In this document: positions 67 through 36,945 of the stretch, one piece after another
Numbering within the stretch: the stretch's first letter is position 1
Layout: each line of letters opens with the position of its first letter
Assembly: GCA_910587595.1 (NCBI GenBank)
Contig: CAJULQ010000005.1
Span: forward strand, 883 to 64,882
Length of the DNA: 64,000 nucleotides
Source of the DNA: an uncultured Christensenellaceae bacterium
Lineage (GTDB): Bacteria; Bacillota; Clostridia; Christensenellales; Pumilibacteraceae
Reading direction: 5' to 3'
Translations under genes and position numbers: made by a program
The notes under the pieces: model-generated
The model's input: only the letters and a program-made list of their open reading frames with translations
Database searches by the model: none
What the model was told of the DNA's origin: nothing

Positions 67-89
67 GGGCGCGAGCGCGTCCGTTTTTT
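67..89 (+). terminator. possible intrinsic terminator of an off-window upstream gene
   Basis: Short GC stem around a GAGC loop (67-82), followed by TTTTTT (84-89). Confidence 0.35.
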
Positions 90-116: not shown

Positions 117-145
117 TTGACGGGGCGGCCGTTTTGTTGTATAAT
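117..145 (+). promoter_or_regulatory. sigma-70-type promoter ahead of the YbjN-like pair
   Basis: TTGACG (117-122), 17-nt spacer, TATAAT (140-145). A GAGGAG RBS precedes the ATG at 184. Confidence 0.55.
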
Positions 146-183: not shown

Positions 184-651
184 ATGACGGCGGCAGAACG
201 GGCAGACAGCGTGTTCGGGTGCTATTGCGAGTATCTGGACGGCAAAGGCTTGCGGTATAAAAAAGACGCGGATGAGCGCAAGATCCTGTTGCAGATGACG
301 GGGGCGAATCTTCCCGTCACGCTTTTGTTGAGCGTGGAAGAGGACAACGAGCGAACGTTCGTGTTTGCCAAACTGCCGTTCGACGTATCGCGGGAAAAGC
401 GGGTGGATCTTGCCATGGCCGTTACGTATATCAATGCCGTGTTGGCTACGGGCACGTTTTGCGTAGACGCGGACGGCGGCTATGTCAGCTACGAATCCAA
501 CGAGCTGTATACGGGATTGCACGGCTTTACGGCCGCCTATGCCGAACGGGTGATTGTTTCGGCCTTTTCGGCGGTGGACATGTTTAACGACAAGCTGTTT
601 GCGGTAAACAAGGGATTGCTTACCGTAAAAGAGTTTGCGGCGCAAATGTAG
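184..651 (+). CDS. YbjN-like (T3SS-chaperone-like fold) protein, paralogue 1
   Basis: 155-aa ORF with RBS. The pattern resembles the YbjN family (conserved LPF..V..EK, N..L..G.F core). Paralogous to the next ORF. Confidence 0.6.
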   Translation: MTAAERADSVFGCYCEYLDGKGLRYKKDADERKILLQMTGANLPVTLLLSVEEDNERTFVFAKLPFDVSREKRVDLAMAVTYINAVLATGTFCVDADGGYVSYESNELYTGLHGFTAAYAERVIVSAFSAVDMFNDKLFAVNKGLLTVKEFAAQM

Positions 652-665: not shown

Positions 666-1133
666 ATGACCGACGGCGAACGCGCCACGGCGGCTTACAA
701 CGCCATTGTGCGCTTTATGACGGAAGCAAAACTGCACTACGAAAGCAACGAGGACACGCGCGAGATCTTTGTGACCATCACGGGCGCAGACTTTCCCGTG
801 TCGTTGCTGTTTACGGTAAACGAGCCGCTGCAACGGGTGGAAACGTATTGCGAACTGCCCTTTGCCGTGCGCAAAGAAAAGGCGGTGGACATGGCCGTTG
901 CGTTGGCCGCCGTCAACGCGCGCATTGCCTACGGCAAGTTTTGTTTGTATTTCGATAAGGGATTGTGCACGTTTGAAAACACCGAGTATATTACCGATCT
1001 CGAAGGGTTTTCGGCCGCGTACGGCCGCGCGATCGTGGCGCCCGCCTATGCCATTGCAGACGAATACAACGACAAGCTGTATGCGCTCAACAAAGGGCTG
1101 TTGCCGCTGAAAGAGTTTGCCGCGAACGTTTGA
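666..1133 (+). CDS. YbjN-like protein, paralogue 2
   Basis: 155 aa, the same length as the upstream ORF. Clearly paralogous to it (shared ..NDKL[FY]A[VL]NKGLL..KEFAA.. C-terminus). Confidence 0.6.
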   Translation: MTDGERATAAYNAIVRFMTEAKLHYESNEDTREIFVTITGADFPVSLLFTVNEPLQRVETYCELPFAVRKEKAVDMAVALAAVNARIAYGKFCLYFDKGLCTFENTEYITDLEGFSAAYGRAIVAPAYAIADEYNDKLYALNKGLLPLKEFAANV

Positions 1134-1152: not shown

Positions 1153-1251
1153 CACGGCGCAAAAATTTAATCGAATTTTTAACTTTCTTTTATGCGGGCG
1201 TAAAGTTTGCATTTTATAATGATTTGTCGAAAGAACGGGGAGGATCGCACG

Positions 1252-3072
1252 TTGTCGAAAAAGGATATCGAAAAGAAAATGGCGGTGCGACGCACGCGCA
1301 ACAGGCTGGCGTCTAATCTCGACACGTTGGAAGAGAACAAACAGCAATACATAGAAAAGGCCAAGGCGGCGCGCGCCAAGGGCGATAAGCACGTATACAG
1401 TTTGGCGCGGAGCGGGTTGGCCGCCACGGTGGCGCAAAGCAAACGCACGCGCGAAATGTTGTTGCACATAGACATCACCTCGCAAATGCGCGATACGGGC
1501 GCGGTCACCGAAGAATTTCTCACGGGCATGGAAACCATTTTCAAGCGCCTTTCCAAGATCAACAAAAGCGTGGATATCAAGAAGGCGCGAAAAGGCTTGC
1601 GCTCGGCCATCATGGGCATGGAAACGGTGCAAGCGCAATTGGACGGCATGCTGGAAGAATCGGAAGATACGTTTGCGGAATTGGCCGGGCAAACGGACAG
1701 CGTGACCGATAAAGAGATAGACCGCTTGCTCGGCCTCAGCGCCGCCATCGACGAAGAAGAGGCGGTGGGCGCGGCGGTAGACGAGATACTGCGCGAAAGC
1801 CAACCGAGCGAAACAAGCGAACGGGCGTTTGCGGCGGCAACGTCCGCGGGCGGCGCTACCCCCTTTTTCGACGATCGATCGGACGAACCCCGCACGGCAC
1901 CGCCGCAACGTTCGAGCGGGCGGCAATATGCATTGCCCGATATAGAACTGCTTAGCGAATACGGCCGCGACGAGAGCGCGCGCGAAACCAACGAATGCGC
2001 GCTCGAAGAGGACGCGGCGGCCGTGGAAAAGGTGTTGGCCGAGTTGGGCGTGCCGGCCAAAGTGTCCGAACGCGTAACAGGGCCTGCGTTCTCGCGGTTG
2101 GAAATGGCCATGCCGTCGGGGTTGTCGGTGCAAAAGATAGACGCGCTTTTATCCGACATTGCCATGCGGTTAGGTAAGCCCGCGCGGCTCGAAGTGCCAA
2201 TCCCCGGCAAAAACGCGTTCGGTATCGAGGTGCAAAACGTGCGCCGCGAAACGGTGGGGCTAAAAGAGTTGATCTTGTCCGAGGCGTTCGAAACGTCGGG
2301 CGACGGCATACGCTACTGCTTGGGCGCGGACATAGACCGAACGCCCGTTGTAAAAGACTTGACGGGCGCGCCGCACATGTTGGTGGCGGGGTGCACGGGC
2401 AGCGGCAAGAGTTGCTTTTTGCATGCCATGCTCGTGTCCATGCTGTATACATACACGCCCGACAAATTGCAGTTGGCCGTTGTGGATCTCAAGCGCGTGG
2501 AAATGGCGGCTTATAACGGTGTGCCCCATCTAACGGGCGGCAAAGTGGTAGACACGGACGAAGAGGCGCTCGCCTTGTTCGAACGGTTGGCCGACGAAAT
2601 GGAACGCCGATACACGCTTTTGTTGGGCGCGCATTGCCGCGATGTGAAAGAATACAACCGCACGGCGGCGCAACCGTTGCCGTATATCGTGGCGGTGGCC
2701 GACGAATACGCCGACATCTCCACGGGGCCGCTTTGCAAGCCGTTCGAGGCGGTGCTCAGAAAGCTCAGTCAAAAGTCGCGGGCGGCGGGCATCCATTTGG
2801 TGTTGGCCACCCAACGCCCCAGCGTAGACGTGGTGTCGGGCACGCTCAAAAGCAATTTCCCCACGCAAGCCGCTTTCCGCGTGGTGCGTAAAGAGGACAG
2901 CCGCACGGTGCTGGCGGGGCAAAGCGGCGCCGAACAGCTTTTGGGCAACGGCGATATGTTGTTTGCCGAGGCGGGCGTGGCGGGCTTGCGCCGACTGCAA
3001 GCGCCCTATGTTTCGAGCGAAGAAGTGCGGCGGGTGTGCGACTATTGGCGACGCGTCGCGGGGAGGGCGTAA
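1252..3072 (+). CDS. Snf7/ESCRT-III-like N-terminal domain fused to an FtsK/SpoIIIE-type DNA translocase motor (no TM segments, no gamma domain)
   Basis: ORF open from 1207. The likely start is TTG 1252, 8 nt after GGAGG, which matches the N-terminus of the paralogue at 3076. The N-terminal ~190 aa are paralogous to ORFs 3076 and 5493 (YSLARSGLAATVAQS vs YRLARSGLAMAVRQS). The C-terminal half carries FtsK motifs: YALPDIELL, GPAFSRLE, IPGKNAFGIEVQN, Walker A AGCTGSGKS, Walker B VAVADEYAD, AAGIHLVLATQRPSVDVVSG, GAEQLLGNGDMLF. Confidence 0.8.
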   Translation: MSKKDIEKKMAVRRTRNRLASNLDTLEENKQQYIEKAKAARAKGDKHVYSLARSGLAATVAQSKRTREMLLHIDITSQMRDTGAVTEEFLTGMETIFKRLSKINKSVDIKKARKGLRSAIMGMETVQAQLDGMLEESEDTFAELAGQTDSVTDKEIDRLLGLSAAIDEEEAVGAAVDEILRESQPSETSERAFAAATSAGGATPFFDDRSDEPRTAPPQRSSGRQYALPDIELLSEYGRDESARETNECALEEDAAAVEKVLAELGVPAKVSERVTGPAFSRLEMAMPSGLSVQKIDALLSDIAMRLGKPARLEVPIPGKNAFGIEVQNVRRETVGLKELILSEAFETSGDGIRYCLGADIDRTPVVKDLTGAPHMLVAGCTGSGKSCFLHAMLVSMLYTYTPDKLQLAVVDLKRVEMAAYNGVPHLTGGKVVDTDEEALALFERLADEMERRYTLLLGAHCRDVKEYNRTAAQPLPYIVAVADEYADISTGPLCKPFEAVLRKLSQKSRAAGIHLVLATQRPSVDVVSGTLKSNFPTQAAFRVVRKEDSRTVLAGQSGAEQLLGNGDMLFAEAGVAGLRRLQAPYVSSEEVRRVCDYWRRVAGRA

Positions 3073-3075: not shown

Positions 3076-3648
3076 ATGGGACTTTTTAAGAGTGCGGAAG
3101 AAAAACGCATGGAAGAAAAGATGTTGGTAAAAAAGGCCGTGGGCAATATCAAGCGGTATATCGAGCGGTTGGAAGAGGCCAAGCAAAAGTATATAGAAGA
3201 GGCCAAGCAAGCCAAACAGCACGGCATACCGTCGCAATACCGTTTGGCGCGGAGCGGGTTGGCCATGGCGGTGCGACAAAGCCGCGTGGCGGAACAGTTG
3301 CTACTCAATCTCGAACTCAACCGCCAGACCAAAGACGCGGGCGAGGCCACGCGCGACTTTGTGGCGGGCATGCAAACGCTTGGCAAAGAGATCACGGCGC
3401 TCAACGGCCGCATACACGTGGCGCGGGCACAAAAGAACATGCGCACGGCGCTCAGCCAAAGCGGGCGCATGCAAGAAAATCTGGAAGGCTTTATGGAAGA
3501 GAGCGAGTTTTTGTTCGGCGAGGCGGCGAGCGACACGGGCTTGGAACGCGAGTTGGACGGCATGATCGACCGCGAGTTGCGGGCGGACGAGTCGGACACG
3601 GCGGCCATGGACGCCGAGATCGACGAAATGTTGGGACGGAATTTGTAA
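3076..3648 (+). CDS. Snf7/ESCRT-III-like protein (PspA/ESCRT-III superfamily)
   Basis: 190 aa, all-helical. It has an MGLFKS N-terminus, a basic helical-hairpin region, and an acidic C-terminus ending in the MIM-like DAEIDEMLGRNL. Starts 4 nt after the upstream stop. Confidence 0.6.
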   Translation: MGLFKSAEEKRMEEKMLVKKAVGNIKRYIERLEEAKQKYIEEAKQAKQHGIPSQYRLARSGLAMAVRQSRVAEQLLLNLELNRQTKDAGEATRDFVAGMQTLGKEITALNGRIHVARAQKNMRTALSQSGRMQENLEGFMEESEFLFGEAASDTGLERELDGMIDRELRADESDTAAMDAEIDEMLGRNL

Positions 3649-3692: not shown

Positions 3693-4454
3693 ATGGTGGA
3701 CTACAGAATAACCAAACGCGACGACGCAATGATCTGGAAGATCGACGTGCGCAAACCCGACAAGGACATGCGGCTCTTAGTAGACGACGGCTTGGTGGCG
3801 CTTGCCTTTGCGGACGGCACGATGTTGGGCGAATTTCGCGCGGGCGAGAAAAAGCTTTTCAACGAGGGCGGCAAAGCGGGCAAAGCGTATAAAAAAGCGC
3901 ATTTCGGCTTTTACGTTTTCAACCGCGAAAAGGCGGCGCCCGTTAAGTGGGGCGTGGGCAAAACGCCCGTGCCGTATGAAGACCGCAAGTTGGGCGGATT
4001 GGTGCTCAATGTGTGCGCCTACGGCCATTGCGACGTGATGATCCATGACGCGGTGCGACTGTGGGAAAAATTGCCCGCCGACTACACCGCCGACAACGTG
4101 GTGCAACCGCAAGAGATCGAGGCGTTTATCCAACGCGAAGTGATCGCGCGCATCACGCCCATACTTTCCAAAAAACTCAACGAGATAGGCGATTTCACGC
4201 GCGTGACGGCGGCGGCCGACACGCTGAGCAAGGGGCTGACGTATGCTTTGCCCGACCTCGAAAATTTGGGCTTGCACGTAGACAAAGCGGTGATCGAGGG
4301 CATAGACTTTACCGACGAATCCAAAGAGATCATTGAAAAGCACCGCGCCGGCAAGGTGGCCAAGATCGAATCGGAGATCGTGCGCGAGCAGTCGGAACAG
4401 ATCAAAAACATTCTTACGGCGCTGAACGCGGGCGACGGCAACAAGGAGGAATAA
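3693..4454 (+). CDS. SPFH/Band-7-like protein of the YdjI (COG4260) type
   Basis: 253 aa. The N-terminal beta-rich region (..DDAMIWK...LLVDDGLVALAF.DG..GEF..G...) and the ..VKWG.. segment resemble B. subtilis YdjI-family SPFH proteins. It lacks the C-terminal Zn ribbon. Confidence 0.55.
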   Translation: MVDYRITKRDDAMIWKIDVRKPDKDMRLLVDDGLVALAFADGTMLGEFRAGEKKLFNEGGKAGKAYKKAHFGFYVFNREKAAPVKWGVGKTPVPYEDRKLGGLVLNVCAYGHCDVMIHDAVRLWEKLPADYTADNVVQPQEIEAFIQREVIARITPILSKKLNEIGDFTRVTAAADTLSKGLTYALPDLENLGLHVDKAVIEGIDFTDESKEIIEKHRAGKVAKIESEIVREQSEQIKNILTALNAGDGNKEE

Positions 4455-4458: not shown

Positions 4459-5496
4459 ATGGCAACCTTTTCACCCGAATTCGTGCGCGAACAGTCGCGC
4501 CAGAACCTAAGCGACATGTCGCGGCTGGTAGACAGCTTGTATCAACGCGCCGACACCCCCGAAGCGCGCGAGGCGTTGGCCACGATGAGCAAAGCGGTTT
4601 CTTCGTTAAAGCCCGTGGGCAGCGTGCCGCAAGTGCTCGACGTGGAATCGCAGATCAAAAAAGTGCTTTCCGACTACAACGCCAATTTAGACGCCGACCG
4701 CGCCGAGGGCATAGACAAGGCCACCGTTTCCATTATTCGCGAGTTGGTGGCTACGCGCAAAAAAATGTGCAACTGCACGGTAGACGCCGACTTAAAACGC
4801 GGCTTTAAGTCGTATGCCAAAGCCAACAAGGGCACGGGCACCAAAAAGGAATTGAAGGCGGCGTATACGGTGCGCTACCAAGAGGCGATGGCCGAGGTGG
4901 ACGGCTACGTGCGCGAGGCCAAAACGCTCGACCAGTTGGTGAAAAGCTATCGACTGCGCACGCGCGAAATGGGCAAACAGCGCGAGCTGGACGAGCTGAA
5001 CAAAACGGTGCAGACGTTGGCCGCCCGTTACAAAAAGAGCACCGACCAAGCCGAGCGCGACCGCCTAAACGCCGAGTATCAAACCTTACTGCGCAAGAAG
5101 AACGCGCTGGACGCGGCGCTCATGGGTTACAAAGACGCCATGCGCAACGTGGAAACGGTGGAATCTTTGTTGAGTCAGCTTTCGGCACAAGCGGAAACGG
5201 CCGAGATCGACAGCATCTCCGCCGAGGATTTCACGGCGTTGGCGCAGTCGGTAACGGCGGGCATCAAAAAAGCGCGCGGCCGCAACGCCGCCATCGACGA
5301 GGCGTACGGCGCGGTGGAAAGCGCCAACCAAACCATGTTGCGTCGCGCGGGCGAGCGCATGCAAGCGGGCGAAACGTTAGACAGCGTGATCTTGGCCGAG
5401 CAAAACGCCGGCTTAGACGCCATAGAGGGCGTGGCCTCCGCGGCCGAGGCGCCCACCTTGGCGGCGCTGGCCGATAACCTCGACGGGGAGATGTGA
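4459..5496 (+). CDS. coiled-coil protein of unknown function
   Basis: 345 aa, long heptad-like Glu/Lys/Arg/Ala-rich helices, AAGGAGG RBS. Translationally coupled to both neighbours. No family recognised. Confidence 0.7.
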   Translation: MATFSPEFVREQSRQNLSDMSRLVDSLYQRADTPEAREALATMSKAVSSLKPVGSVPQVLDVESQIKKVLSDYNANLDADRAEGIDKATVSIIRELVATRKKMCNCTVDADLKRGFKSYAKANKGTGTKKELKAAYTVRYQEAMAEVDGYVREAKTLDQLVKSYRLRTREMGKQRELDELNKTVQTLAARYKKSTDQAERDRLNAEYQTLLRKKNALDAALMGYKDAMRNVETVESLLSQLSAQAETAEIDSISAEDFTALAQSVTAGIKKARGRNAAIDEAYGAVESANQTMLRRAGERMQAGETLDSVILAEQNAGLDAIEGVASAAEAPTLAALADNLDGEM

Positions 5497-5498
5497 AC

Positions 5499-6074
5499 AT
5501 GTTCGGAAGAAAGAAACGAAAACAGCCCGCCGTGGATCCGCGCGAGCAAGTGGAAAAAACGGTAGAGAATTTGGAGGCGTTCGTCAGAAAGGCCGAAACC
5601 AAGCGGCGCGAACTTCTTTCCAAAGCCAAAACGGCCAAAGCGCGCGGCGACAAAATGAGTTTCAATATGGCGGTCAACGCGCTGCGCATGGTCATGCAAC
5701 AGCAAAAGCAAGCCGAGCAAATGTCGCTCACCATGGGCATCGTAATGGACACGCGCGACGTGCAAGGCATGCTGGGCGAGTTTTTCACCAGCATGAAAAC
5801 GCTTTGCATGCAATTGGGCGAAGTACCCGATTTCAAAGAAATGCAAAAGGCGGCGTCCGAATTCAACCGCAACATGAACAAGATGAACGAACAAACCATG
5901 ATGATGGACGAGTTCATGACGGCCATGAGCGAAAGCATGGGTAATATGGATTTCGAGGGTGTTTCCACCAACGACGAGATCGGCAAGATGATCGAGCGCG
6001 AACTGGCCAACGAGCTGGACGCGGAAGAGATCGCCATCAACGAGCAGTTGGAGGCCGCCAAAAACAGACTGTAA
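5499..6074 (+). CDS. Snf7/ESCRT-III-like protein (CHMP2-like layout)
   Basis: The ORF track starts at GTG 5493. ATG 5499 gives MFGRKKRK, like the eukaryotic CHMP N-terminus (..LFGRRK). By eye the layout can be laid alongside my recollection of human CHMP2A along its length. Acidic C-terminus ends in the MIM1-like EEIAINEQLEAAKNRL. Confidence 0.65.
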   Translation: MFGRKKRKQPAVDPREQVEKTVENLEAFVRKAETKRRELLSKAKTAKARGDKMSFNMAVNALRMVMQQQKQAEQMSLTMGIVMDTRDVQGMLGEFFTSMKTLCMQLGEVPDFKEMQKAASEFNRNMNKMNEQTMMMDEFMTAMSESMGNMDFEGVSTNDEIGKMIERELANELDAEEIAINEQLEAAKNRL

Positions 6075-6107
6075 AAATAGTAGCAACGAGAGGGGACGCA
6101 AAAACAC

Positions 6108-7196
6108 ATGGCGAATAACCAAGCACTGCTGTACGACACCTACACCGATTATTACAACCGCGCCATGCGGGCCAAAAATGCGGGCGAAAACGACAAAGCG
6201 CGCAAGTATTTTCTATTGGCGGCCGAAACGTTGCGCGATCTGGCGCAAGTGAGCGAGGGCGAACTCAAAAAATCGCGCTACCGCACGGTGAAAAAGCTGA
6301 TTGCGGCGGCCGAAAGTTTGGCGCCGCAAGCGCGGGTGGCGCGGAGCGGTGCGGATCGCAGCGACAAAGCGGCGCGCGCGCCCGACGATCCCACCGACGA
6401 ATACGACCTCGACATAGCGTCGCCCAACGAAAAAGTATCGTTCGACGATATCATAGGGTTGCAAAATGCCAAAACGGCCATACGCCGCATGCTGATACAC
6501 CCGCTCAACAATCCGCAAGCCTACATAAAATACGGCCTAAAGCCGGGCGGCAACATTTTGTTGGAGGGGCCTCCCGGCACGGGCAAGACTACGTTTGCCA
6601 AGGCGGCGGCGTGCGAGATCCGCTTGCCCTTCGTGGTGGCGAACTGTTCGGCTTTGGTGGATTGCCTGATCGGCAACACCGCCAAAAATATCGACAAGCT
6701 GTTCGGCGAAGTGCGCCGCTTGGTGCGCAACCGCAAAACGGCGGCCATCGTGTTTTGCGACGAGTTCGACGAGATCGCCCGCTCGCGGGGCGGCGACAGC
6801 AAAACGGCCGACGAGGCGGTGCCCGCGCTCATTCGGCAGCTCGACGGGTTTAATACCGACAACGCCAACATCGTGGTGATCGCGGCCACCAACCGCAAAG
6901 ACACTTTAGATAAAGCGGTGCTCAGCCGATTTACAAAAAGCATATTTATTCCGCTACCTACCCGCGACGATCGCAAAAAGATCTTTGCGGCCAAGCTTAG
7001 GCGTATCGACGCCGAGGACTGCGCGGTCATCGATTTCGACGCGTTGGCCGACGAGAGCGAGGGCATGAGCGGGCGGGACATCACCCACGTGTGCGGCGAG
7101 TTCGTGAACGTGTTGGCCGAGCGCGACGCGGGGCTTACGCGAATAAACGGCACGCACACCGACGTTTTGCGCGAGTTTGTGGCGCAAAAACGCTGA
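6108..7196 (+). CDS. MIT-like domain + classical AAA ATPase (Vps4-like)
   Basis: The N-terminal ~75 aa form a helical, MIT-like segment (YYNRAMRAKNAGENDKARKYFLLAAETLRDLAQ). The AAA module has GPPGTGKT, IVFCDEFDEI, sensor-1 ATN and an SRH (LDKAVLSRF). The layout resembles Vps4. Confidence 0.7.
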   Translation: MANNQALLYDTYTDYYNRAMRAKNAGENDKARKYFLLAAETLRDLAQVSEGELKKSRYRTVKKLIAAAESLAPQARVARSGADRSDKAARAPDDPTDEYDLDIASPNEKVSFDDIIGLQNAKTAIRRMLIHPLNNPQAYIKYGLKPGGNILLEGPPGTGKTTFAKAAACEIRLPFVVANCSALVDCLIGNTAKNIDKLFGEVRRLVRNRKTAAIVFCDEFDEIARSRGGDSKTADEAVPALIRQLDGFNTDNANIVVIAATNRKDTLDKAVLSRFTKSIFIPLPTRDDRKKIFAAKLRRIDAEDCAVIDFDALADESEGMSGRDITHVCGEFVNVLAERDAGLTRINGTHTDVLREFVAQKR

Positions 7197-7209
7197 CCGA
7201 GAATAAGAC

Positions 7210-10200
7210 ATGATAGAATACGTTTCCAAAGCCTGTCCGTTTTGCGGCGGCACACAGATCGATCGCGCGGGCGACGCGTATATTTGCGCCTACTGTCTGC
7301 AACCGCTGGACGTTTCGAGCGGTGTTTTGAGCGACGGCTACAACAAGCTGGCGTCGTTTAACTTTGCGGGCGCGGCGGCGTTTTTCCGATCGATGACGGC
7401 GTCGGCGGGCGCGGAAGCGTTTTACGGCTTGTTTTTGGCCAAATATAAGATTGCGGAAAACAAGCAAGGTGGCCAAACGCGCCCCGTGGTGTTGGGATAT
7501 TATCCCGCCTCTTTCGAGCAAAACGAGGACTACCGACAAGTGCGGCGGCTTTGCGAGAGCAACGCGTCGCTGTTGACAAAATTGGATCGCATCGAACAGG
7601 CGCGGGCGCAGTCGACGGGATCGGAACCGCCCGTCGACGTGTTGGTGTTTTGCGACGGCGGGGGCAAAGAGGGGGCGCAACGTTTTGCCGACGCGGTCAG
7701 CGCGTGCGGACGAAAAGCGCTTGTATGCGAACAAACGCCCTCTTTGGCGGTGTTGCGCGCGGCGCAAGCGGCCTACGGCTTTTTTGACGACTTGCAAGCG
7801 ATAGAGCGATTGCTGTGCGGCAACGCGCGCTATTTTCCGCTGTTGGAAAACGCACGCACCGAGCTTACGGGCGCCAAGCGACCCATTAAAATAGAATGCT
7901 CTTTTGCCGTGCCAGACGCGCTCAAAGGGGGCGCGGCAACCTTTGCCGATATTTCCGCGGCGGCCGAAGTGCGGCGGTTGCACGCCCTATTGGGCGGCCG
8001 TACGGCCGTGCCCTCGTTGCCGTTGCGGTTTTTGTCTGCACCCGTCACCAAACGGCGGGCGAGCACGGCCCACGCGGCAACGGACGTAACGCGCTTGCAA
8101 CGGCTGCTATATAACGGCGATTTTGCGGGCGCTTTGCGGGAAACGGAACGGGCGGCCGACGGCACGGCGAGCGCGGCGGTGTTTTGGTGCGGCTTTTTGG
8201 CGTGCGCCCGCGCGCGCGACGACAGTGCGTTGGTAGCGTCGCCCAATGAGAACGCTTTCACGGCCGAGGCGCTCGGCTATGCGAGCGAGGCGTTGTATCG
8301 TTGCGCCGACCATGCCGCCGCGCAACCGTATTTGCGGGTGCTTACGGACACCGCGCTTCGTTGTATAGACCGCGGCTTTTTGGCATTTGCCGCCCGCGCC
8401 GTGGACACGGCGTTTTGCTACGACTATGCCGACGACTACGCCGACAAGCTGTTGGCGCGGTTGCATGCGGCGCACGGCGGACTGCCCGCCGCCGAGGCGT
8501 TCGCGCTGGGCAAAAAGATCATAGACAAACTTTCGGCCGAGCAAGACGCGTCGCGGTTGCGCTTTGCGTTGCAACTAACGGACGATGCCTTGCGTGCGGG
8601 CGAGTGGGCGCTGGCGGACGACTGCATAGAAAGCTTGCTCGACCGTTTCGGCACCGAAAAAGAATTGTATTTGCGCAAGTGGCTGATCTCCAACCGCGTG
8701 TGCGATACGGCCGCTTTGCGGGCGGTGCCCTATCCGCGCTTGGGCGAAAACTTTGCCTTTTGTTTGGCGGTGTTGCCGCCCGAATCGCGCGCAACGCTGC
8801 TGAAAGATACTTTTAACGGGTTGTGCCGCGCGGCGGCGGCCGACGGGTTCGCGCCGCGCGAGGCGGCTTTGGGCGAGGCGTTGGCGCTCGGCCGCGCCCT
8901 TTCGTTGTTTGCCGCGCCCGTGTTCGGCGCGACCGATTATTGCGCGGTGGGCGACCTTGCGTTGCGCGAAAAAGATTTCGAATCGGCGGCCGCCTATTTT
9001 GCGGGCGCTTTGCGGTGCGACGGCCGCAGTTACCGTGCGCATTGGGGCGCGCTGTGCGCCGCCTTGCAGTGCGAGAACGACCGCCGCTTGGAAGAATGCG
9101 CCACGCCTATCGACCGTGCGGGCGACTGTTTCGAAAACGCATATACCACGGCGTTGGGGCGCGACGAGGCGTTTATTGCGCGCATAGAGGGCGTGCGGGC
9201 GCGGCAACGCGAAACGGTGCGCAAAGACGGCCACGTGTTTCGCCCTTCCGATTTCGTGATCGACAACGGGTGCGTGCGAAAATATACGGGCGAGGGCACG
9301 CCTAACGTGTTCGTTTCGGGCGTTACGGCCATCGGCGACGGCGCGTTTCGCGGCGCGGACGCGGTTAGCGTGCTTGTGGACGAGGGTGTTACGGCTATCG
9401 GCGACGGCGCGTTTGCCCACAGCGCCTTGCGATCGTTGCGCTTGCCCGACAGTGTGGTGCGCTTGGGCGCCAATCCCTTTGTAGGGTGCGACGACTTGGT
9501 AAGTTTGACGGCGGCGGGCAAGATCCGCGTGGAAAACGGGGGCGTGTATCGGGGCGATCGCTTGGCGGCGTTCGTGCCCTCTTTGGCGCAAAGCGACGCG
9601 TTTATTGCGTTGCGTTCCACGTCTTCGATAGCCGACCGCGCTTTTTACGGGGTGCACGGCGGCAGCATAGATCTCGGCAACGCCGCGCTCGATCCGTGCG
9701 CGCTGTATGCGTGCGAGGGGGCGTCGATAAAGGCCGCTCGCGGTGCGGCCGCGGCGCGCACGGGCGAAAGCGTTACGGGGTGCGACCGCATAGAAAACGG
9801 CAAGATCGTGTCCGCCGGCAAGGCGCGCTGGGCGTCTTTATACGGCAACGGCGGCAACAACATGGCGGCGGACGGAAACGTGTTGCGCGACGGAAACGTG
9901 CGCGTGGAAAAGATCGCCGACACGCCCCGCTTGCAAAGCGGCATTTTGTGCAAAAACGATCGCCTCATTTACGCGCACGAAAACGCGCTGTATGTTGTGC
10001 CCGCGGCGGGCGGGCGCGCCGAGCGGTTGGCCGCGGTGGGCGAGTGCACGGGCACGGGCGTGCTGTGGAACGAGTATATCGTGCAACCGGTGGAAACGCA
10101 AACGGGCGCGGCGTTGTGCTTTGTGGCGCCCAACGGCAAAACGGAATACACGGTGTCTTTGCCCGAACGGCTCACCCGTCCGCTGTGCTTATCCGGCGAC

Positions 10201-10833
10201 ACGCTTTTGTGCGTGAGCGATCGGCTGGTCACGGCGGTGCATTTGCCCACGGGCAAAACGCGCGGCCGCGTCATGCCCGCGCGCGTTACGAGCGTGCCGT
10301 GCGCCGCGGGCAACGGGTTTGTGTTGGCCGACGAACAACATGTGTATGCGCTCGACACTCGCTTGCAAGGCGAGGCGGTGCACGCGTTAACGGGCGGCAA
10401 CTACGCGCAAGGGCAAGGCAAGATCTGCCGCAACCGTATCGTTGGCTACAAGGGCACGGCCTATTGGGTGGAGCGCACCGACGCCAACGTTTGTATCGGC
10501 ATGTATAACGGCGTTATGGCGGGCAAGGCGGCCGTGCCGCGGCGCATAGCCGACTTTTTGCAAACGCAACCCGTGCTGTACGGCGATACGCTGTACGCGG
10601 GCGGCAACACGCACGTGATCACGGCGCGCATTTCGTCGGTGTCGGGTGAATGGACGTTCGGTATAGGGGACGATGTGGGCGGCAAATACGCCGAGTTGGC
10701 GGTGATAGGCGGCGCGTGCTATATAAACGCCATGGAAGGCGCCTACGGGCGGCTTCGGTTGCGCGCCGTAGCGGACGGCAAGGCGATCGTAACGGATATA
10801 GACAGCGGAGGCATATATGCCGCAAGAATTTGA
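7210..10833 (+). CDS. large multidomain protein: N-terminal Zn-ribbon, helical (TPR-like) region, BspA-type LRRs, C-terminal beta-propeller-like region
   Basis: 1207 aa. CPFCGG...CAYC at the N-terminus. LRR_5-like repeats (VTAIGDGAFRGA..VTAIGDGAFAHS..LRLPDSVVRLGANPF). A Gly/Tyr/Val-rich, repetitive beta-strand region at the C-terminus. Confidence 0.6.
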   Translation: MIEYVSKACPFCGGTQIDRAGDAYICAYCLQPLDVSSGVLSDGYNKLASFNFAGAAAFFRSMTASAGAEAFYGLFLAKYKIAENKQGGQTRPVVLGYYPASFEQNEDYRQVRRLCESNASLLTKLDRIEQARAQSTGSEPPVDVLVFCDGGGKEGAQRFADAVSACGRKALVCEQTPSLAVLRAAQAAYGFFDDLQAIERLLCGNARYFPLLENARTELTGAKRPIKIECSFAVPDALKGGAATFADISAAAEVRRLHALLGGRTAVPSLPLRFLSAPVTKRRASTAHAATDVTRLQRLLYNGDFAGALRETERAADGTASAAVFWCGFLACARARDDSALVASPNENAFTAEALGYASEALYRCADHAAAQPYLRVLTDTALRCIDRGFLAFAARAVDTAFCYDYADDYADKLLARLHAAHGGLPAAEAFALGKKIIDKLSAEQDASRLRFALQLTDDALRAGEWALADDCIESLLDRFGTEKELYLRKWLISNRVCDTAALRAVPYPRLGENFAFCLAVLPPESRATLLKDTFNGLCRAAAADGFAPREAALGEALALGRALSLFAAPVFGATDYCAVGDLALREKDFESAAAYFAGALRCDGRSYRAHWGALCAALQCENDRRLEECATPIDRAGDCFENAYTTALGRDEAFIARIEGVRARQRETVRKDGHVFRPSDFVIDNGCVRKYTGEGTPNVFVSGVTAIGDGAFRGADAVSVLVDEGVTAIGDGAFAHSALRSLRLPDSVVRLGANPFVGCDDLVSLTAAGKIRVENGGVYRGDRLAAFVPSLAQSDAFIALRSTSSIADRAFYGVHGGSIDLGNAALDPCALYACEGASIKAARGAAAARTGESVTGCDRIENGKIVSAGKARWASLYGNGGNNMAADGNVLRDGNVRVEKIADTPRLQSGILCKNDRLIYAHENALYVVPAAGGRAERLAAVGECTGTGVLWNEYIVQPVETQTGAALCFVAPNGKTEYTVSLPERLTRPLCLSGDTLLCVSDRLVTAVHLPTGKTRGRVMPARVTSVPCAAGNGFVLADEQHVYALDTRLQGEAVHALTGGNYAQGQGKICRNRIVGYKGTAYWVERTDANVCIGMYNGVMAGKAAVPRRIADFLQTQPVLYGDTLYAGGNTHVITARISSVSGEWTFGIGDDVGGKYAELAVIGGACYINAMEGAYGRLRLRAVADGKAIVTDIDSGGIYAARI

Positions 10834-13150
10834 AATCAAATGCGTGATAAGCGAAGAAGGCGTGCCGGGCGGCTTGAAAATAGACGCCACGCCCAAAAGC
10901 TACGCCAAATACAAAGCGCTGTTCGAGGCGGCGCGCGAGGTGCGCAAGATCGACGATTTTCGCGAACTGCGCGTGCCCTTTTACCCCGCGTTTCGGCCGT
11001 TCGAGTACCAGCGCGAGGCAGTGCTCATGATGTTGTCGCGTTTTCGCGGCAAAGGCATTTTCGGCGATCAAGTGGGGCTTGGCAAAACGGTGGAAGTGGG
11101 CATGACGGTGGCCGAATACGCCGCCCGCGGCGCGGTGCAAAACGTGCTGTTGCTGTGCCCCGATAAATTGGATTTCCAGTGGGAACAAGAAATGCGCGAA
11201 AAATTTTCGACGCACTTTACCGCCCGCCACGTGCGCACGTTCCGCGAAATGGAAACGAGCCGAACAAACGGCGTTACCATGTTTTTGATGTCGTTTGGGG
11301 CGCTTTTATCCGAGATCCGCGGTTTGCGCGAACGTTTTTCGGACGACGTGCGCCGCGAGGAAGATTGGGTGCTTTCCGAGGGGTTCAAAGCAGAGCGCGC
11401 CGCCGACTACGAAAAGCGCAAACGCGCGTTAGCCAAAGATAAAAAATTGTGCGATCGGTTGGGCGCCGAGATCGACGCGCACTACTTGCAAGTGTTTGAT
11501 CGCTACAACCGTTTGTGGCCGTCTATCCACATGTTGGTGATCGACGAGGCGGACGCGTTGCTGTCGGTAGATCCTACCCGCACGTTGCAGATCTACACGG
11601 TGGCGGAGCACCTCGGCAAGCGCAGCGACTTGCCGTATAAAATACTTTTGTCGGCCACGCCCATTCGCCGACAGCTAGCCGACGTGTATAAACTCATGCG
11701 CATCGTGCGCCCCGAACAGTTTCGCGATAAGAACGATTTTATACGCAACTACTGTTTCGGCAAAGCGCGGCTCAATGATTTTTACGGCGAGGAGATCCGC
11801 CAGCTGAAAGGGCTGATCGATCAGCTGTTTACGCGCAACCGTTTAACGAGCGCCACGGTGCAACGGTCTTTGCAACCGCTCACGGTGGCCGAAGTGCTTG
11901 ACGTGAACCTCAAAAATTTTGCCGCGCCCGATATGGAAGAACGGGTGAAAGAGGCGGTGATCGACGGCGTGGCGTTCGGCGAGAGCGACCCCGCCCGCGT
12001 GCGCGCGCTGGTGCGTGAGAATATGGATGCCTATGCGCGCGATACGGGACAGTCTTGGACGGAATACGTGCGCACGGTGCTCATAGATCCCGACCGCTCG
12101 CCCGTGCGCATCACGCGGGAAAAAGACCGCGCGTTCGCGCAAAGTTTGTTGCAACGCGTGGGCGATCAAAAGGGCGCGGAGGCGGACGCCTTGCGGTTTA
12201 CGTGCGAGGACTACACCATTCCGTCTAAGCGCGGCCACCATATCCGCTACCGAGAGAGCAAGCGGGCGTATGCCGATAAAGACGCGTTGGAAGACGCGCT
12301 CACGGCGCGGTACATGCGCAAAGCGCGGCGCGAAAACGACTATGCGTATTCCGACGAGGGCACGATCGCCTACTACGATCGCGCGCAGATAGAGTGCGAG
12401 GGCAAGTATGCGGAGTTCGACCGCCTCGTTAACGAGTTGCTGATCGACCGCAAAGCGGTGGTGTTTTCGGCCGCCAAACAGCGCGACGTTCTCATGCGAT
12501 TGGTTAACGACGTGCAAAAGGGGCGGGCGCTGGCGGGCGGCGGCGACCATGCCGGTTATCTCAAATTTCGCAGCAACGACGCCGCCTATAAAAACGCGGT
12601 GTATTTTGCGGTGAACGGCGAAGAAAAGGGCTTTAACATGCAGTTTTGTTCGCACCTAATCATTACCGATCTGCCGCACGACCCCAACTTGGTAGAGCAG
12701 ATCGTGGGGCGCGTGTCGCGTATCGGTCAGCACGACCCCATGCACGTGTACGTGTTCACGCCCACGGGATCGCTCGAATACAGTTTGTATTTGTTTTACA
12801 ACGATATTTTGCATTTGTTTTCCGATTGGGACGGTGACAACACGTTTATCATCGGGGGCGCGGTGGCCGCCTTTTTGGAGGACGCGCCCGACGTGCACCG
12901 CGAACTGTTGCGCCGCTTGGGCGCGTCGCGCAACGCGTACGGCGAAACGGCCGAAGTGGGCTTTGCGCCATTGGCCGAGTATTTGTGGGAGCAATACCAA
13001 GCGGGATATGCCATCGGATCGTTCGAAGAATATGCGCCGTGGGCGGCGTTTTGCGAGCATGTGCGCGAGAGCATACGCTCGTTCAAAGAATTGGTAAAAG
13101 AGATGGGCGAGCAAGAAATGTTTGCCGCCGACGAACAAGAGTTGTTATAG
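10817..13150 (+). CDS. SNF2-family helicase/ATPase
   Basis: Motifs GDQVGLGKT (I), LLLCP (Ia), VIDEADAL (II), LLSATP (III) and QIVGRVSRIGQ (VI). Overlaps the upstream CDS by 17 nt. Confidence 0.85.
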   Translation: MPQEFEIKCVISEEGVPGGLKIDATPKSYAKYKALFEAAREVRKIDDFRELRVPFYPAFRPFEYQREAVLMMLSRFRGKGIFGDQVGLGKTVEVGMTVAEYAARGAVQNVLLLCPDKLDFQWEQEMREKFSTHFTARHVRTFREMETSRTNGVTMFLMSFGALLSEIRGLRERFSDDVRREEDWVLSEGFKAERAADYEKRKRALAKDKKLCDRLGAEIDAHYLQVFDRYNRLWPSIHMLVIDEADALLSVDPTRTLQIYTVAEHLGKRSDLPYKILLSATPIRRQLADVYKLMRIVRPEQFRDKNDFIRNYCFGKARLNDFYGEEIRQLKGLIDQLFTRNRLTSATVQRSLQPLTVAEVLDVNLKNFAAPDMEERVKEAVIDGVAFGESDPARVRALVRENMDAYARDTGQSWTEYVRTVLIDPDRSPVRITREKDRAFAQSLLQRVGDQKGAEADALRFTCEDYTIPSKRGHHIRYRESKRAYADKDALEDALTARYMRKARRENDYAYSDEGTIAYYDRAQIECEGKYAEFDRLVNELLIDRKAVVFSAAKQRDVLMRLVNDVQKGRALAGGGDHAGYLKFRSNDAAYKNAVYFAVNGEEKGFNMQFCSHLIITDLPHDPNLVEQIVGRVSRIGQHDPMHVYVFTPTGSLEYSLYLFYNDILHLFSDWDGDNTFIIGGAVAAFLEDAPDVHRELLRRLGASRNAYGETAEVGFAPLAEYLWEQYQAGYAIGSFEEYAPWAAFCEHVRESIRSFKELVKEMGEQEMFAADEQELL

Positions 13151-13160
13151 GAGTCAAGCG

Positions 13161-15233
13161 GTGTCCGACAAAGACAGAGTAAACGAACTGAATACGCGAT
13201 TGGGCGGCATGCGGGCGCGGCGCAACGTGTCTACGCTCGACAAGAACGTGCGCGCCATCGAACGGTTGGTGAACGCCGCGGCCGATCGGTCGGTGGGGCT
13301 TATTTCGGTGTACCGTCCGCTCGACGAGGAGGAAAAGCGCGCGCTGCAACCGCTTGAGCGCGACGAGATCGCCAACGCGTATCACGTGGAAACGGCGGGG
13401 GACAACCGCGTTCGCTACATAACCTATAAACCGCGGGTGGAGCAAGGCGCGGGCGGCGCGCTCGAGCACGTGAATCGCTCCACGCCGTTCGTGCAGTCGT
13501 TGCTCGAAAAGGTGAGCAACGAATATTCGTTTTTGTATTGCCACAGCAAAGTGCGTGCGTGCTCGGTGCCTTTGCCGCCCGCGGCAAGCGGATTTGCGGT
13601 GCAAGCGGGCGAAACGGAGCACCTCGAAGGCAAAAACAAATACGAGCTGTTTTTTCTCATAGAATGCAAAGACAACATAGACGCGGGCGAGCGTATCGGC
13701 AATATCATAGACAGCGTGCTGTTAGACGTAGACGGCGAGAGCGGCGACTTTTTCGCGCGCATGTCGTACGCCTCGCTCACGCACGAGGACGAAGAGGACG
13801 AGGAGGATATGCCGTTTGTGGAGCCCGCGGTGCAAAGCCAGCTCAACGACATTATTTTGCAGATCCGCGAATTGCCCAAGGTGCGCGAGCGCATCGTCGA
13901 CTTTTTGGCGGGATGCGAGCAGAGCGAACTGCACGCCTTTCTCGCCGCGCGCAACGAGGCGTTCGTGCGCATGCGCGAGGTGTCGCCCCAAGATATCAAC
14001 GCGTTCAATTCCACCGTTACGTGCAGAGTATTGCCCATCGGCGTGTTTTTGAACGCGATAGACAACGACCGCATTCCCTACACGGTAACGGGTAAAAACG
14101 GCGAACGCGCTGTGTTTTGCACCGAGCTAAATCCCGCCGCGCCCTTTTCGGCGCACGTGTGCCCGCACTGCGGCGCGGCGCTCACGCCCGACAACGGCGT
14201 GTTGGCGGCGTCTACGCGCGAGGGATACCGCGTGGGGTGCGAAAAGTGCGCGTCGCGTTGCGCGCACAAAAACTGCAAAACGTACGCTTTCGATTCGCAA
14301 GGTTGCGCGGTGTGCCACAAGATCTTGTGCCCTACGCATTCGTTGCCGAGCGCGGATTCGTTGCACTCGCTGTGCCGCGAGTGCGCGCGCGTGTTCCGCG
14401 ATCCGTCGGGCGCGCCGCTTGCGCCGTCGGATGCGGCGGTGCGCGGCGAAGAAGAGTTTTACGTGCGCGACAACGTGGAACGGCTTGGCAAAACGGGCGC
14501 GCTCAACATGTTCAAAACGGTCAAACTGCTACGCAAGTCGCTGTGCGTTTTGTGTAAGACGGCGGCCGATCGGCGCGCTTATTATCTCAAGAACGAAACG
14601 GCCGATTGCCCGACGTGCGGCGAACACTATTTGAAAACGGCGCTCAAAAAAACGCGCGACACGGGCGAGAAATTGTGCGATAACTGCCGCTTGGATTGCG
14701 CGTGCGGCAACGTGGTGGCCAAGAAAAACGCCCACATGTGCGCCGCCGACGGTTGCGATCGCGGCTTTTGCGAAAAGTGTTTTTCGGCGCGGCAAACGCC
14801 CAAGGGCTACGCGGCCGCGGTAAAAAGAATGGGTCAGCGCAAGGCGGCCACGCAAGCGGGCGACGCGTTGCTGTGCAACGAGCACGTGGCGGTGTGCAAA
14901 GTGTGCGGCGTTGCTCTGCCCAAAAACGAGTTGCGCGTTTGCCCCGATTGCGGGGGCGGATATTGCGCATCGTGCGAGCGCGACGGCAAATGCCGCACGT
15001 GCGCTGCGGCCGATACGGTCACGGTCGAAAACTACAAAAGCGTGTCGTCGCGCACGCGGCGCATGCGGTTGAACGCGTTGCCGCTGCGCGATCGCTTGGG
15101 CAAAACGGCGGTGATCGAAGACCACGAAACGGTGGTGTTCGTAACGCTGCCCACCGTGCCGCTGTTGCGCCTTTCGGCCGTAAAACGCGTGCACCATAAA
15201 CTCACGGGCAAAACGGAGGTGATCCGAAAATGA
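13161..15233 (+). CDS. cysteine-rich protein with multiple zinc-ribbon-like units
   Basis: ORF open from 13122. The likely start is GTG 13161, 7 nt after AGGAG. At least 12 CxxC dyads counted by eye in the C-terminal two thirds. No catalytic motif recognised. Confidence 0.65.
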   Translation: MSDKDRVNELNTRLGGMRARRNVSTLDKNVRAIERLVNAAADRSVGLISVYRPLDEEEKRALQPLERDEIANAYHVETAGDNRVRYITYKPRVEQGAGGALEHVNRSTPFVQSLLEKVSNEYSFLYCHSKVRACSVPLPPAASGFAVQAGETEHLEGKNKYELFFLIECKDNIDAGERIGNIIDSVLLDVDGESGDFFARMSYASLTHEDEEDEEDMPFVEPAVQSQLNDIILQIRELPKVRERIVDFLAGCEQSELHAFLAARNEAFVRMREVSPQDINAFNSTVTCRVLPIGVFLNAIDNDRIPYTVTGKNGERAVFCTELNPAAPFSAHVCPHCGAALTPDNGVLAASTREGYRVGCEKCASRCAHKNCKTYAFDSQGCAVCHKILCPTHSLPSADSLHSLCRECARVFRDPSGAPLAPSDAAVRGEEEFYVRDNVERLGKTGALNMFKTVKLLRKSLCVLCKTAADRRAYYLKNETADCPTCGEHYLKTALKKTRDTGEKLCDNCRLDCACGNVVAKKNAHMCAADGCDRGFCEKCFSARQTPKGYAAAVKRMGQRKAATQAGDALLCNEHVAVCKVCGVALPKNELRVCPDCGGGYCASCERDGKCRTCAAADTVTVENYKSVSSRTRRMRLNALPLRDRLGKTAVIEDHETVVFVTLPTVPLLRLSAVKRVHHKLTGKTEVIRK

Positions 15234-21972: not shown

Positions 21973-22002
21973 ACAAAAAACGGCCCGTTGGGAGGTAAAG
22001 GT

Positions 22003-24177: not shown

Positions 24178-24235
24178 AGTAAGGCGACTATACAACGCAT
24201 TGCGTGCAACTAATACGATACGATGAGGGCATGCC

Positions 24236-26422: not shown

Positions 26423-26435
26423 GGAGAAAACTATA

Positions 26436-33021: not shown

Positions 33022-33026
33022 TTCTT

Positions 33027-33087
33027 TGTCATTTCGACCGACGCCCCTTCTGTGTCATTTCGACCGAGCGTAGCGAGCGGAGAAATC
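33027..33087. repeat. dispersed hairpin repeat, one truncated and one longer unit
   Basis: TGTCATTTCGACCGACGCCCCT (33027-33048) and TGTCATTTCGACCGAGCGTAGCGAGCGGAGAAATC (33053-33087). Confidence 0.8.
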
Positions 33088-33155
33088 TTTTGCCCGTAGG
33101 TCTTGCTTTTTTACAAAAATTCCCGCAAAAAGTTTGTAAAGTTATGCATAATTGT

Positions 33156-33185
33156 TTGACATTATTGATTTGCTTGTGTTAAAAT
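33156..33185 (+). promoter_or_regulatory. strong sigma-70-type promoter upstream of the S10 operon
   Basis: TTGACA (33156-33161), 18-nt spacer, TGtTAAAAT extended -10 (33177-33185). Confidence 0.6.
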
Positions 33186-33189
33186 AATA

Positions 33190-36943: not shown

Positions 36944-36945
36944 GT

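Follow-up and report, generated by a model that had tools for sequence, protein, structure and literature searches.

Positions 1252..3072 of a 64,000-nucleotide stretch of contig CAJULQ010000005.1 (hereafter the window), from a spore-forming gut Clostridia bacterium, hold a gene that joins a Snf7/ESCRT-III-like domain to the alpha and beta motor domains of the DNA translocases FtsK and SpoIIIE. The gene lies in an operon together with two stand-alone paralogues of its N-terminal domain and an ATPase of Vps4-like architecture. On balance, we incline slightly towards reading the fusion as a subunit of a bacterial ESCRT-III/Vps4-like machine that carries its own double-stranded DNA (dsDNA) translocase. 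The initial annotation of the window had described this one fusion; we find that it belongs to a wider family of Snf7-DNA-motor fusions.

The fusion protein and its motor half

The fusion gene and its parts are as follows.
1252..3072, + strand: Snf7-FtsK fusion gene, 606 aa, in a frame open from 1207
1252..1791, + strand: Snf7/ESCRT-III-like domain (~aa 1-180), assigned by paralogy to 3076..3648 and by matching family hidden Markov models
1792..1932, + strand: variable linker rich in Ala, Glu and Pro (identity 0.30; 61-97 aa in orthologues, counted from aa 165)
1933..2241, + strand: FtsK alpha domain (Pfam FtsK_alpha, 6.3e-16)
2242..3069, + strand: FtsK beta (RecA-like) motor (Pfam FtsK_SpoIIIE, 3.5e-41; PDB 2iuu, 3.2e-72)
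2398..2412, + strand: Walker A motif, inside the beta domain
2701..2715, + strand: Walker B motif, inside the beta domain

The open reading frame (ORF) 1207-3072 of the initial annotation is present, and within it TTG 1252 is the probable start, with a ribosome-binding site (GGGGAGG) 7 nt before it. The 606-aa product is identical in sequence to MCI8458561.1, deposited as 'MAG: DNA translocase FtsK [Clostridia bacterium]'; assemblies from NCBI, ENA and Logan contain the same protein on 44 contigs, and 95 index blocks list the accession. Orthologues fall into 18 clusters at 49-66% identity, all with the full architecture in one reading frame: a Snf7-like domain of ~165-180 aa, the Ala/Glu/Pro-rich linker, then FtsK alpha and beta. 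Pairwise identity among them averages 0.67 in both the N-domain and beta and 0.70 in alpha, but only 0.30 in the linker. Because the domains are conserved and the linker is variable, the protein appears to consist of two functional domains on a flexible tether.

This pattern across the 18 clusters also excludes a frameshift-merged pair, a concern that the initial annotation had raised along with assembly error. For the fusion to be an artefact, a frameshift or mis-assembly would have had to join two genes in a metagenome-assembled genome. The recovery of an identical protein from several sources, the in-frame retention of the fusion in diverged clusters and the occurrence of more distant Snf7-FtsK and Snf7-RuvB fusions leave that explanation with a negligible probability.

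The motor places the protein in the FtsK/SpoIIIE family, but without two of the modules that are usual there. The Pfam matches score 141.5 bits for FtsK_SpoIIIE (cut-off 24) and 58.9 bits for FtsK_alpha (cut-off 22.9), the Walker A (GSGKS, aa 383) and Walker B (DEYAD, aa 484) motifs are intact, and every motif quoted in the initial annotation is present in the translation. The motor is 38-47% identical to canonical FtsK motors, and its nearest solved structures are those of true FtsK (2iuu), with the type VII secretion system (T7SS) proteins EccC and EssC scoring much lower. The first missing module is the gamma domain: Pfam finds no Ftsk_gamma in the fusion or in its 18 orthologue clusters, whereas canonical FtsK matches have it, and the protein stops ~20 aa past the beta domain. 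The second is the membrane anchor. No transmembrane (TM) helix was found in the fusion, the top 19-residue Kyte-Doolittle window reaching 1.18 at the Walker A motif, and FtsK_4TM (PF13491) gave no match. In contrast, a canonical FtsK of 870 aa in locus L004 (L numbers denote contigs of relatives retrieved for comparison) has hydrophobic, putatively TM, N-terminal segments and a C-terminal gamma domain. Both absences had been claimed from the letters of the DNA, and both stand. No canonical ftsK or spoIIIE lies inside the 64-kb window. Judging from its sequence, the motor probably forms a hexamer that translocates dsDNA at the expense of ATP.

Such an ATPase could instead serve protein secretion, as a T7SS-type (EssC/EccC-like) translocase, with the operon's AAA protein and its TPR-like N-terminus standing in for EccA and the YbjN-like proteins acting as chaperones. 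There are weak NCBIfam matches to EssC/EccC (~3e-27) and EccA (2.9e-7), and YbjN falls in a family resembling type III secretion system (T3SS) chaperones. True FtsK, however, matches far more strongly (NCBIfam, 9e-75; PDB, 3.2e-72), its alpha domain included; the fusion has one ATPase domain only, with neither an FHA domain nor a TM helix; we noticed neither WXG100-like nor other T7SS components; and sister operons carry RuvB in place of FtsK. On the strength of the FtsK match and the RuvB replacement we reject a T7SS-type protein translocase, which we regard as very improbable.

Snf7-like proteins and a Vps4-like ATPase

Three further genes of the operon bear directly on the N-terminal half.
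3076..3648, + strand: Snf7-like protein a, stand-alone, 190 aa; N-terminal MGLFKS, C-terminal DAEIDEMLGRNL
5499..6074, + strand: Snf7-like protein b, stand-alone, 191 aa; N-terminal MFGRKKRK, C-terminal MIM1-like helix
6108..7196, + strand: MIT-like three-helix bundle, linker and single classical AAA domain, 362 aa; Vps4/CdvC-like architecture

The fusion's N-domain had been called a paralogue of the two stand-alone proteins, and alignment bears this out (36% identity over 179 aa, E 8e-30, with ORF 3076..3648; 29%, E 2e-12, with ORF 5493..6074). The ribosome-binding site of protein a sits inside the 3' end of the fusion gene. For protein b, the alternative start GTG 5493 (193 aa) overlaps the preceding stop, and the gene call in L015 is ATG 5499 (191 aa). 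The N-domain of the fusion carries the conserved EIDxLLG and AxxDxxL helices, and it has no N-terminal MGLF-type motif. One detail of the initial annotation has to be corrected: DKEIDRLLG of the fusion and DAEIDEMLG of ORF 3076, which it had paired, are alike in sequence but are not positional equivalents. Instead, DKEIDRLLG aligns with ERELDGMID of ORF 3076 (predicted helix 5), and it is AAVDEIL of the fusion that pairs with DAEIDEML at the C-terminus of ORF 3076.

Whether the N-terminal half resembles the Snf7 and PspA families had been left to profile tools; both profile and fold searches detect Snf7/ESCRT-III similarity. Pfam Snf7 is the recurrent match of 20/20 close family members, the fusion N-domain included (best 1.8e-5). 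An exhaustive family profile search yielded 545 representative clusters at E<=1e-3, and among 108 diverse stand-alone members 13 match Pfam Snf7 at E<=1e-3 (best 1.4e-9), versus none for PspA_IM30 at the same threshold. Searched against PDB sequences, the profile of these 108 members (A7) matches CHMP2A at 1.5e-5 over positions 8-142 (nearly full length), and also CHMP3 and CHMP1B, with no PspA/Vipp1 chains among its matches. The AlphaFold2 (AF2) model of ORF 3076 consists of helices 7-49 and 52-109 (a long hairpin), 115-150, 155-172 and 175-188. In a Foldseek search with this model, ranks 1-23 are all of the ESCRT-III superfamily, led by CHMP2A/CHMP3 and Asgard ESCRT-IIIB (top match CHMP2A, 7zcg_B, E 8.4e-3, probability 1.0), and Vipp1 is found only among the lower-ranked matches.

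The termini of the stand-alone proteins point the same way. Their N-termini are of the MGLFKS, MFGKKK or MDLFGRKK types, which, as we presume, recall those of CHMP3 and CHMP2A; an xLF-type motif occurs in 55/114 stand-alone members and in none of the FtsK-type fusions. A strict MIM1-like pattern is present in the last 40 aa of 18/114 stand-alone members versus 0.3 expected in shuffles, and the window's own proteins fit it only partly (DAEIDEMLGRNL; EEIAINEQLEAAKNRL). Because of the CHMP matches, the MGLFKS/MFGKKK N-termini, the MIM1-like tails and the adjacent MIT-like and AAA gene, we assign the family to the Snf7 type rather than the PspA type. PspA membership itself is rejected on the two negative profile results above. 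The comparisons support a bacterial branch of the Snf7/ESCRT-III family that would comprise the N-domain and both stand-alone proteins.

The partner ATPase (Pfam AAA, 5.3e-33) was modeled by AF2 (pLDDT 87.3) as an N-terminal three-helix bundle (2-24, 28-48, 52-70; pLDDT above 90), a disordered linker and one AAA domain. A profile of its N-terminal 75 residues matches the MIT domains of chitin synthase (2mpk, 8.7e-4), calpain-7 (1.2e-3), Sulfolobus Vps4 (2v6y, 2e-3) and VPS4A (0.19), E-values that are modest and are accompanied by matches to consensus TPR designs; Pfam MIT is found in 5/19 AAA family members (best 4.6e-5). The NCBIfam CdvC model spans residues 5-329 and is the sole model aligning from residue 5, at 147 bits against a cut-off of 650; PAN, FtsH and CDC48 reach similar scores. 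In the second region of homology (~aa 268-285) the sequence is AVLSRFTKSIFIPLP, two residues shorter than in AAA proteins of the Cdc48/FtsH/PAN type: its AVLSRF motif lacks the PG of the Cdc48 type, seen as a 2-residue gap in the alignment. This pattern we take to be consistent with the Vps4/spastin/Msp1 group. Neither a Vps4 beta-domain nor Vps4_C was detected in the window's AAA protein, and Vps4_C has a faint match in L011 only. The architecture predicted by the model is Vps4-like, while membership of the Vps4 clade is not established. Pore loop 1 (~aa 183-190) reads C-L-I-G here versus the family consensus S-Y-I-G.

The association of the two protein types is recurrent. Snf7-like and MIT-AAA genes share a locus in 14/15 loci with enough downstream sequence, mostly with Snf7 directly upstream.

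These data also bear on the improbable reading in which the N-domain is a coiled-coil oligomerisation or regulatory module that forms no membrane polymer, and in which a soluble complex regulates the DNA motor. The window proteins fall under the Pfam threshold, the fusion has no N-terminal hydrophobic motif, no TM partner is encoded adjacent to it, and CHMP1B/IST1 polymers, which are among the Foldseek matches (PDB 6e8g, 8v2q), can bind nucleic acid directly. A soluble scaffold would nevertheless leave the ESCRT-III-type N-terminal motifs and MIM1-like tails of the stand-alone paralogues, the dedicated MIT-AAA partner and the link to an SPFH protein unaccounted for.

The operon and its relatives

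The operon comprises 12 + strand genes with short gaps or overlaps and reaches 17638. By this tight spacing, the fusion gene is co-transcribed with the two Snf7 paralogues, the MIT-like and AAA ATPase, an SPFH gene and two YbjN-like genes. The remaining features are listed here.
67..82: terminator-like hairpin, before the promoter-like site
117..145, + strand: promoter-like site TTGACG-17-TATAAT, ahead of the operon (11/12 consensus match only)
184..651, + strand: YbjN-like protein 1, of the T3SS-chaperone-like family, 155 aa (Pfam YbjN, 6.3e-7)
666..1133, + strand: YbjN-like protein 2, paralogue of 184..651 (41% identity, E 2e-45)
3693..4454, + strand: cytoplasmic SPFH protein of the Band_7_1 family (Pfam, 2.1e-8), no TM helix
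4459..5496, + strand: conserved 345-aa protein, no significant Pfam or NCBIfam family
7210..10833, + strand: 1207-aa cytoplasmic Zn-ribbon/LRR_5 protein (Pfam LRR_5, 8.8e-8, BspA-type), no TM helix, conserved in L001
10817..13150, + strand: SNF2-family helicase (Pfam SNF2-rel_dom, 1.1e-16), its start overlapping the end of the preceding gene
13122..15233, + strand: 703-aa protein overlapping both neighbours, no Pfam, NCBIfam, PADLOC or PDB match
15230..17638, + strand: 802-aa membrane protein with Flg_new / InlB B-repeats (Pfam Flg_new, 1.4e-29)

A relative at ~65% identity (L001-L003) keeps the gene order, adds a trypsin-Sel1 gene and differs in what lies upstream; the genomic position of the operon is not conserved between relatives. 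YbjN-like protein 1 also precedes the fusion in L001-L003 and L015-L017, the Band_7_1 SPFH gene is conserved in L001-L003, L007/L008 and L011, a 344-345-aa gene occupies the matching position in L001 and L007, and the SNF2 helicase does so in L001 and L015. The 345-aa protein was considered as a diverged Snf7/PspA protein and rejected, as it is not similar to the Snf7 profile. In the 1207-aa protein, an N-terminal CxxC...CxxC motif resembling a Zn-ribbon was read by eye; a PDB search with its N-terminal 697 aa returned no match, and it has only LRR repeats in common with an LRR protein of L010 and only a marginal N-terminal motif in common with a TIR protein of L006. The 802-aa protein is the sole operon product with TM segments (69 hydrophobic windows >=1.6).

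The locus is chromosomal, because rRNA lies upstream and SecA and a ribosomal protein cluster lie downstream. Directly upstream of the operon in L015, from the window's species, are 23S-5S rRNA (5084..8244) and a divergent gene for a 73-aa XRE-type helix-turn-helix regulator (8420..8641); downstream, at 30319..49000 of the window, come SecA and the S10/spc/alpha cluster (L3, L2, S3, L6, SecY, RpoA). With core genes on both flanks, a prophage or plasmid origin was rejected, and a scan of viral contigs found no relatives of the system. A SipL/SPOCS-domain protein encoded at 57214..58719 marks the organism as a spore-former, and a tRNA gene lies at 56609..56680 on the minus strand. At 20596..28631, the window holds a gene for a MACPF/perforin-domain protein followed by three tandem MacB-like genes (ABC ATPase fused to an FtsX-type permease), with a lower GC content (0.45-0.51 versus 0.54-0.64 in the operon).

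In the wider family, the Snf7-like domain forms the N-terminus of a longer protein in 25 of the 150 best representatives. Twelve of these continue into FtsK_SpoIIIE and 12 into RuvB (RuvB_N, lid, RuvB_C); a NERD nuclease is also found in three of the longer proteins and a TnsA-like domain in two. Since related operons replace FtsK with RuvB, the ESCRT-III domain has, as judged by sequence, been fused repeatedly to hexameric dsDNA motors. FtsK and RuvB have hexameric dsDNA translocation in common, so that DNA is the probable substrate. L007 (10001..12403) and L008 (7251..9653) carry Snf7-RuvB-NERD fusion genes, the only motor fusion seen there, in an operon that shares a core of trypsin, Band_7_1, 344-aa, Snf7 and AAA genes. 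L011 combines TIR, Band_7_1, Snf7, two MIT-AAA genes, Sel1-trypsin and Snf7-RuvB (8024..9835); its operon begins with the TIR protein and abuts a TerD cluster. In L006 (56..7203), a double-Zn-ribbon protein is encoded with two candidate Snf7-like genes, of which only the second passed the family model, then a Zn-ribbon-TPR-TIR-TM protein of 1006 aa that has a ribosomal L7/L12 C-terminal domain at its end, then a MIT-AAA protein with two AAA domains. The record label of L006, 'uncultured Acidiphilium sp.', looks like a binning error. A scan of GTDB genomes with the fusion protein, limited by peptide patterns, gave 3 loci (a canonical Bacteroidales FtsK and two Snf7-like genes).

A minimal class is set apart by its content and its place. 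Its genes encode Snf7-FtsK with the beta domain alone, Snf7 and, in most cases, MIT-AAA, and they directly follow der-plsY on five independent Clostridia contigs (L009, L010, L012, L014 and L018; for example, L012 10001..13127 and L018 5945..9080). The module adjoins or is near spoIVA in L012, L014 and L018, and in L012 spoIIGA-sigE-sigG lie upstream of it, so that the surroundings form a conserved neighbourhood of sporulation genes.

This class provides much of the case for a role in development or division, which we think rather unlikely for the window's fusion. An ESCRT-III ring would constrict or seal the septum, asymmetric in sporulation or vegetative, while the tethered FtsK clears trapped chromosome, a covalent counterpart to the work of SpoIIIE, FtsK or SftA at the divisome. 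The repeated der-plsY setting near spoIVA fits such a role, as do the spore-forming host, a motor nearest true FtsK, an operon placed among core genes and the tie between SpoIIIE DNA pumping and membrane fission in B. subtilis spore development (bioRxiv 10.1101/2021.10.08.463650). Yet the window's operon is of the expanded class rather than plsY-spoIVA, its relatives carry TIR, NERD and trypsin genes, and its position is not conserved. Without gamma, moreover, the motor would not be oriented by sequence, as SpoIIIE must be if sporulation is to be efficient (PMC4744071); many minimal-class motors appear catalytically dead; and synteny with spoIVA may only mean insertion into a stable block.

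Proposed mechanism and known systems

We propose the following mechanism, whose core, taken apart from any biological setting, we hold to be probable. The stand-alone paralogues, with MGLF/basic N-termini like the membrane-insertion motifs of ESCRT-III, would form polymers on the cytoplasmic side of the membrane. The fusion, which has no such motif, would join the polymer through its Snf7 domain and thereby concentrate FtsK motors there. The tethered motors would hexamerise on dsDNA at the membrane site and pump it in a direction that, because the gamma domain is absent, may depend on geometry and not on sequence. The MIT-AAA ATPase would bind the MIM-like C-terminal helices and remodel or disassemble the polymer as Vps4 does. 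Overall, where the polymer seals or cuts a membrane neck or lesion, the machine would move the DNA lying there or clear it away.

The initial annotation had suggested that Snf7 replaces the usual membrane anchor, and the layout agrees: a localisation module, a low-complexity linker and alpha-beta mirror FtsK, with Snf7 in the place of 4TM. Its further proposal, that membrane remodelling is coupled to DNA pumping, gains weight because sister operons have a Snf7-RuvB fusion at the same position; the functional side of this coupling is something we infer.

Several observations weigh against the mechanism. The window's stand-alone Snf7-like proteins reach only E 0.034 with Pfam Snf7 (PF03357; 14.2 bits, under the gathering cut-off of 27.3), and the AF2 model of ORF 3076 is of moderate confidence (pLDDT 68.7). 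A narrow Snf7 profile (A2) found no ESCRT-III match among PDB sequences; hhalign of A2 with single CHMP3 and PspA sequences is barely informative (CHMP3 N-terminus, E 0.0037; E. coli PspA, E 0.4). A Foldseek search with the AAA model returns AFG3L2, p97, Msp1 and PAN and leaves Vps4 indistinguishable from the rest of the classical AAA group. In the minimal class, the Walker motifs of the FtsK-like domain are often degenerate, so DNA pumping is not universal in the wider family. Finally, we infer each of four steps: polymerisation, binding to the membrane, MIT-MIM binding and translocation of DNA.

For the 12-gene version, we tentatively favour a stress or conflict response against DNA at the membrane. 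Related loci supply TIR, NERD, TnsA-like, trypsin-Sel1 and SNF2 partners, modules are swapped, and the operon sits at differing positions in its relatives. This setting is weakened by the location of the operon among core genes, with no mobile-element genes noticed nearby. In PADLOC-DB 2.0, the operon matches no described anti-phage system: the matches there are generic and at domain level (the FtsK motor with the C-terminus of SspH, the AAA protein with IetA, SNF2 with BrxH/DrmD), and there is none for the Snf7-like, SPFH, 345-aa, LRR, 703-aa and 802-aa proteins.

The same parts could be arranged for DNA export, with the ESCRT-III/Vps4-like machine budding vesicles outward and the tethered motor loading them with DNA, by analogy with the ESCRT-dependent vesicles of Sulfolobus, which carry DNA. 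ESCRT-III and Vps4 carry out budding away from the cytoplasm, crenarchaeal vesicles contain chromosomal and plasmid DNA (PMC7619361), a gamma-less motor would pump any DNA, and the final operon gene encodes a membrane or surface protein. We give export little credence, however: nothing in the locus is specific to vesicles, the presumed Gram-positive wall would hinder budding, and fusions to NERD nuclease suit DNA destruction better than delivery.

The proposed machine can be compared with several known systems. With FtsK/SpoIIIE (P. aeruginosa FtsK, 2iuu; L004), the fusion has in common the alpha and beta motor, the Walker motifs and the order of N-terminal module, linker and motor; it differs in having a Snf7/ESCRT-III domain as that module instead of 4TM, and no gamma domain to read FtsK-orienting polar sequences (KOPS) or SpoIIIE recognition sequences (SRS). 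The B. subtilis FtsK homologue SftA also lacks TM segments and is peripheral, held by an amphipathic helix and SepF or FtsA (PMC9320952). Compared by description rather than by sequence, SftA is likewise a TM-less FtsK-family translocase, but it joins the FtsZ divisome non-covalently, whereas the fusion's motor is covalently linked to an ESCRT-III-type polymer subunit.

The closest counterparts of the surrounding genes are the ESCRT-III and Vps4 systems (CdvB/CdvC; CHMP2A/CHMP3/CHMP1B and VPS4). Both have multiple Snf7-family paralogues of five- to six-helix layout and an adjacent MIT-like bundle with a classical AAA ATPase bearing the Vps4/spastin-type 'xRF' second region of homology; the MGLF/basic N-terminal motifs and C-terminal MIM1-like helices may be further common features, and an SPFH partner is found here as in some archaeal ESCRT loci (PMC11188069). 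The locus differs in being bacterial (Clostridia), in carrying a DNA motor on one subunit and in having an AAA protein not resolved to the Vps4 clade; no ESCRT-I, ESCRT-II or CdvA was seen at the locus. PspA/Vipp1 systems (pspA-ydjGHI; PMC11237479) similarly place an ESCRT-III-superfamily gene beside Band_7_1 SPFH, Zn-ribbon, CesT/YbjN-like and sometimes AAA+ genes. The SPFH protein YdjI/SamI acts with PspA in B. subtilis, and PspA recurs in neighbourhoods with CesT-like and Band-7 partners (PMC11237479). Snf7-type subunits, MIM-like tails, the MIT-AAA pairing and fusion to FtsK or RuvB distinguish the present locus from them. A conceptual parallel, ESCRT-III machinery coupled to DNA at the division neck, comes from CdvA, whose filaments contain DNA and bind CdvB (PMC3132758); that link is non-covalent, with no DNA translocase fused to an ESCRT-III subunit, in contrast to the fusion described here.

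ESCRT-III/Vps4, FtsK and a TM-less FtsK (SftA) are known already, and what appears to be new here is the combination of Snf7 with FtsK, of which we found no published description outside subscription-only papers. Bacterial Snf7 homologues and Vps4-like ATPases have been reported separately (PMC11237479), and neither that paper nor one of its supplements mentions an FtsK or RuvB fusion. Searching the literature outside subscription-only papers, we found no paper with both 'Snf7' and 'FtsK' and no description of a Clostridial ESCRT-III/Vps4 system. According to a recent overview, ESCRT components besides PspA/Vipp1 are not found in bacteria (PMC11188069), and a review states that a Vps4-like ATPase appears to be absent from them (PMC7619361).

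The locus belongs to a family that numbers at least several hundred protein clusters, in which Snf7-type proteins with MIM-like tails are encoded beside a MIT-like AAA gene in Clostridia. On the most far-reaching reading, Clostridia have a complete and functional ESCRT-III/Vps4-type scission machine, made up of Snf7 paralogues with MIM tails and a MIT-AAA ATPase, one subunit of which is an FtsK or RuvB DNA translocase, and its minimal, spoIVA-adjacent form acts in endospore development. We rate this as doubtful. If it were true, bacteria could no longer be said to lack Vps4-driven ESCRT machinery, and there would be a second bacterial solution, besides FtsK/SpoIIIE, for closing a membrane around DNA, in which membrane cutting or sealing and DNA pumping are mechanically coupled in one assembly. 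Should the mechanism hold, the locus would offer a compact bacterial model of ESCRT-III/Vps4 mechanics and a new mode of anchoring a DNA pump. It would also give a handle on how membrane fission or repair is coordinated with DNA that lies across the membrane, as in sporulation, division or conflict with invading DNA, and it would bear on the evolutionary history of ESCRT-III and Vps4.

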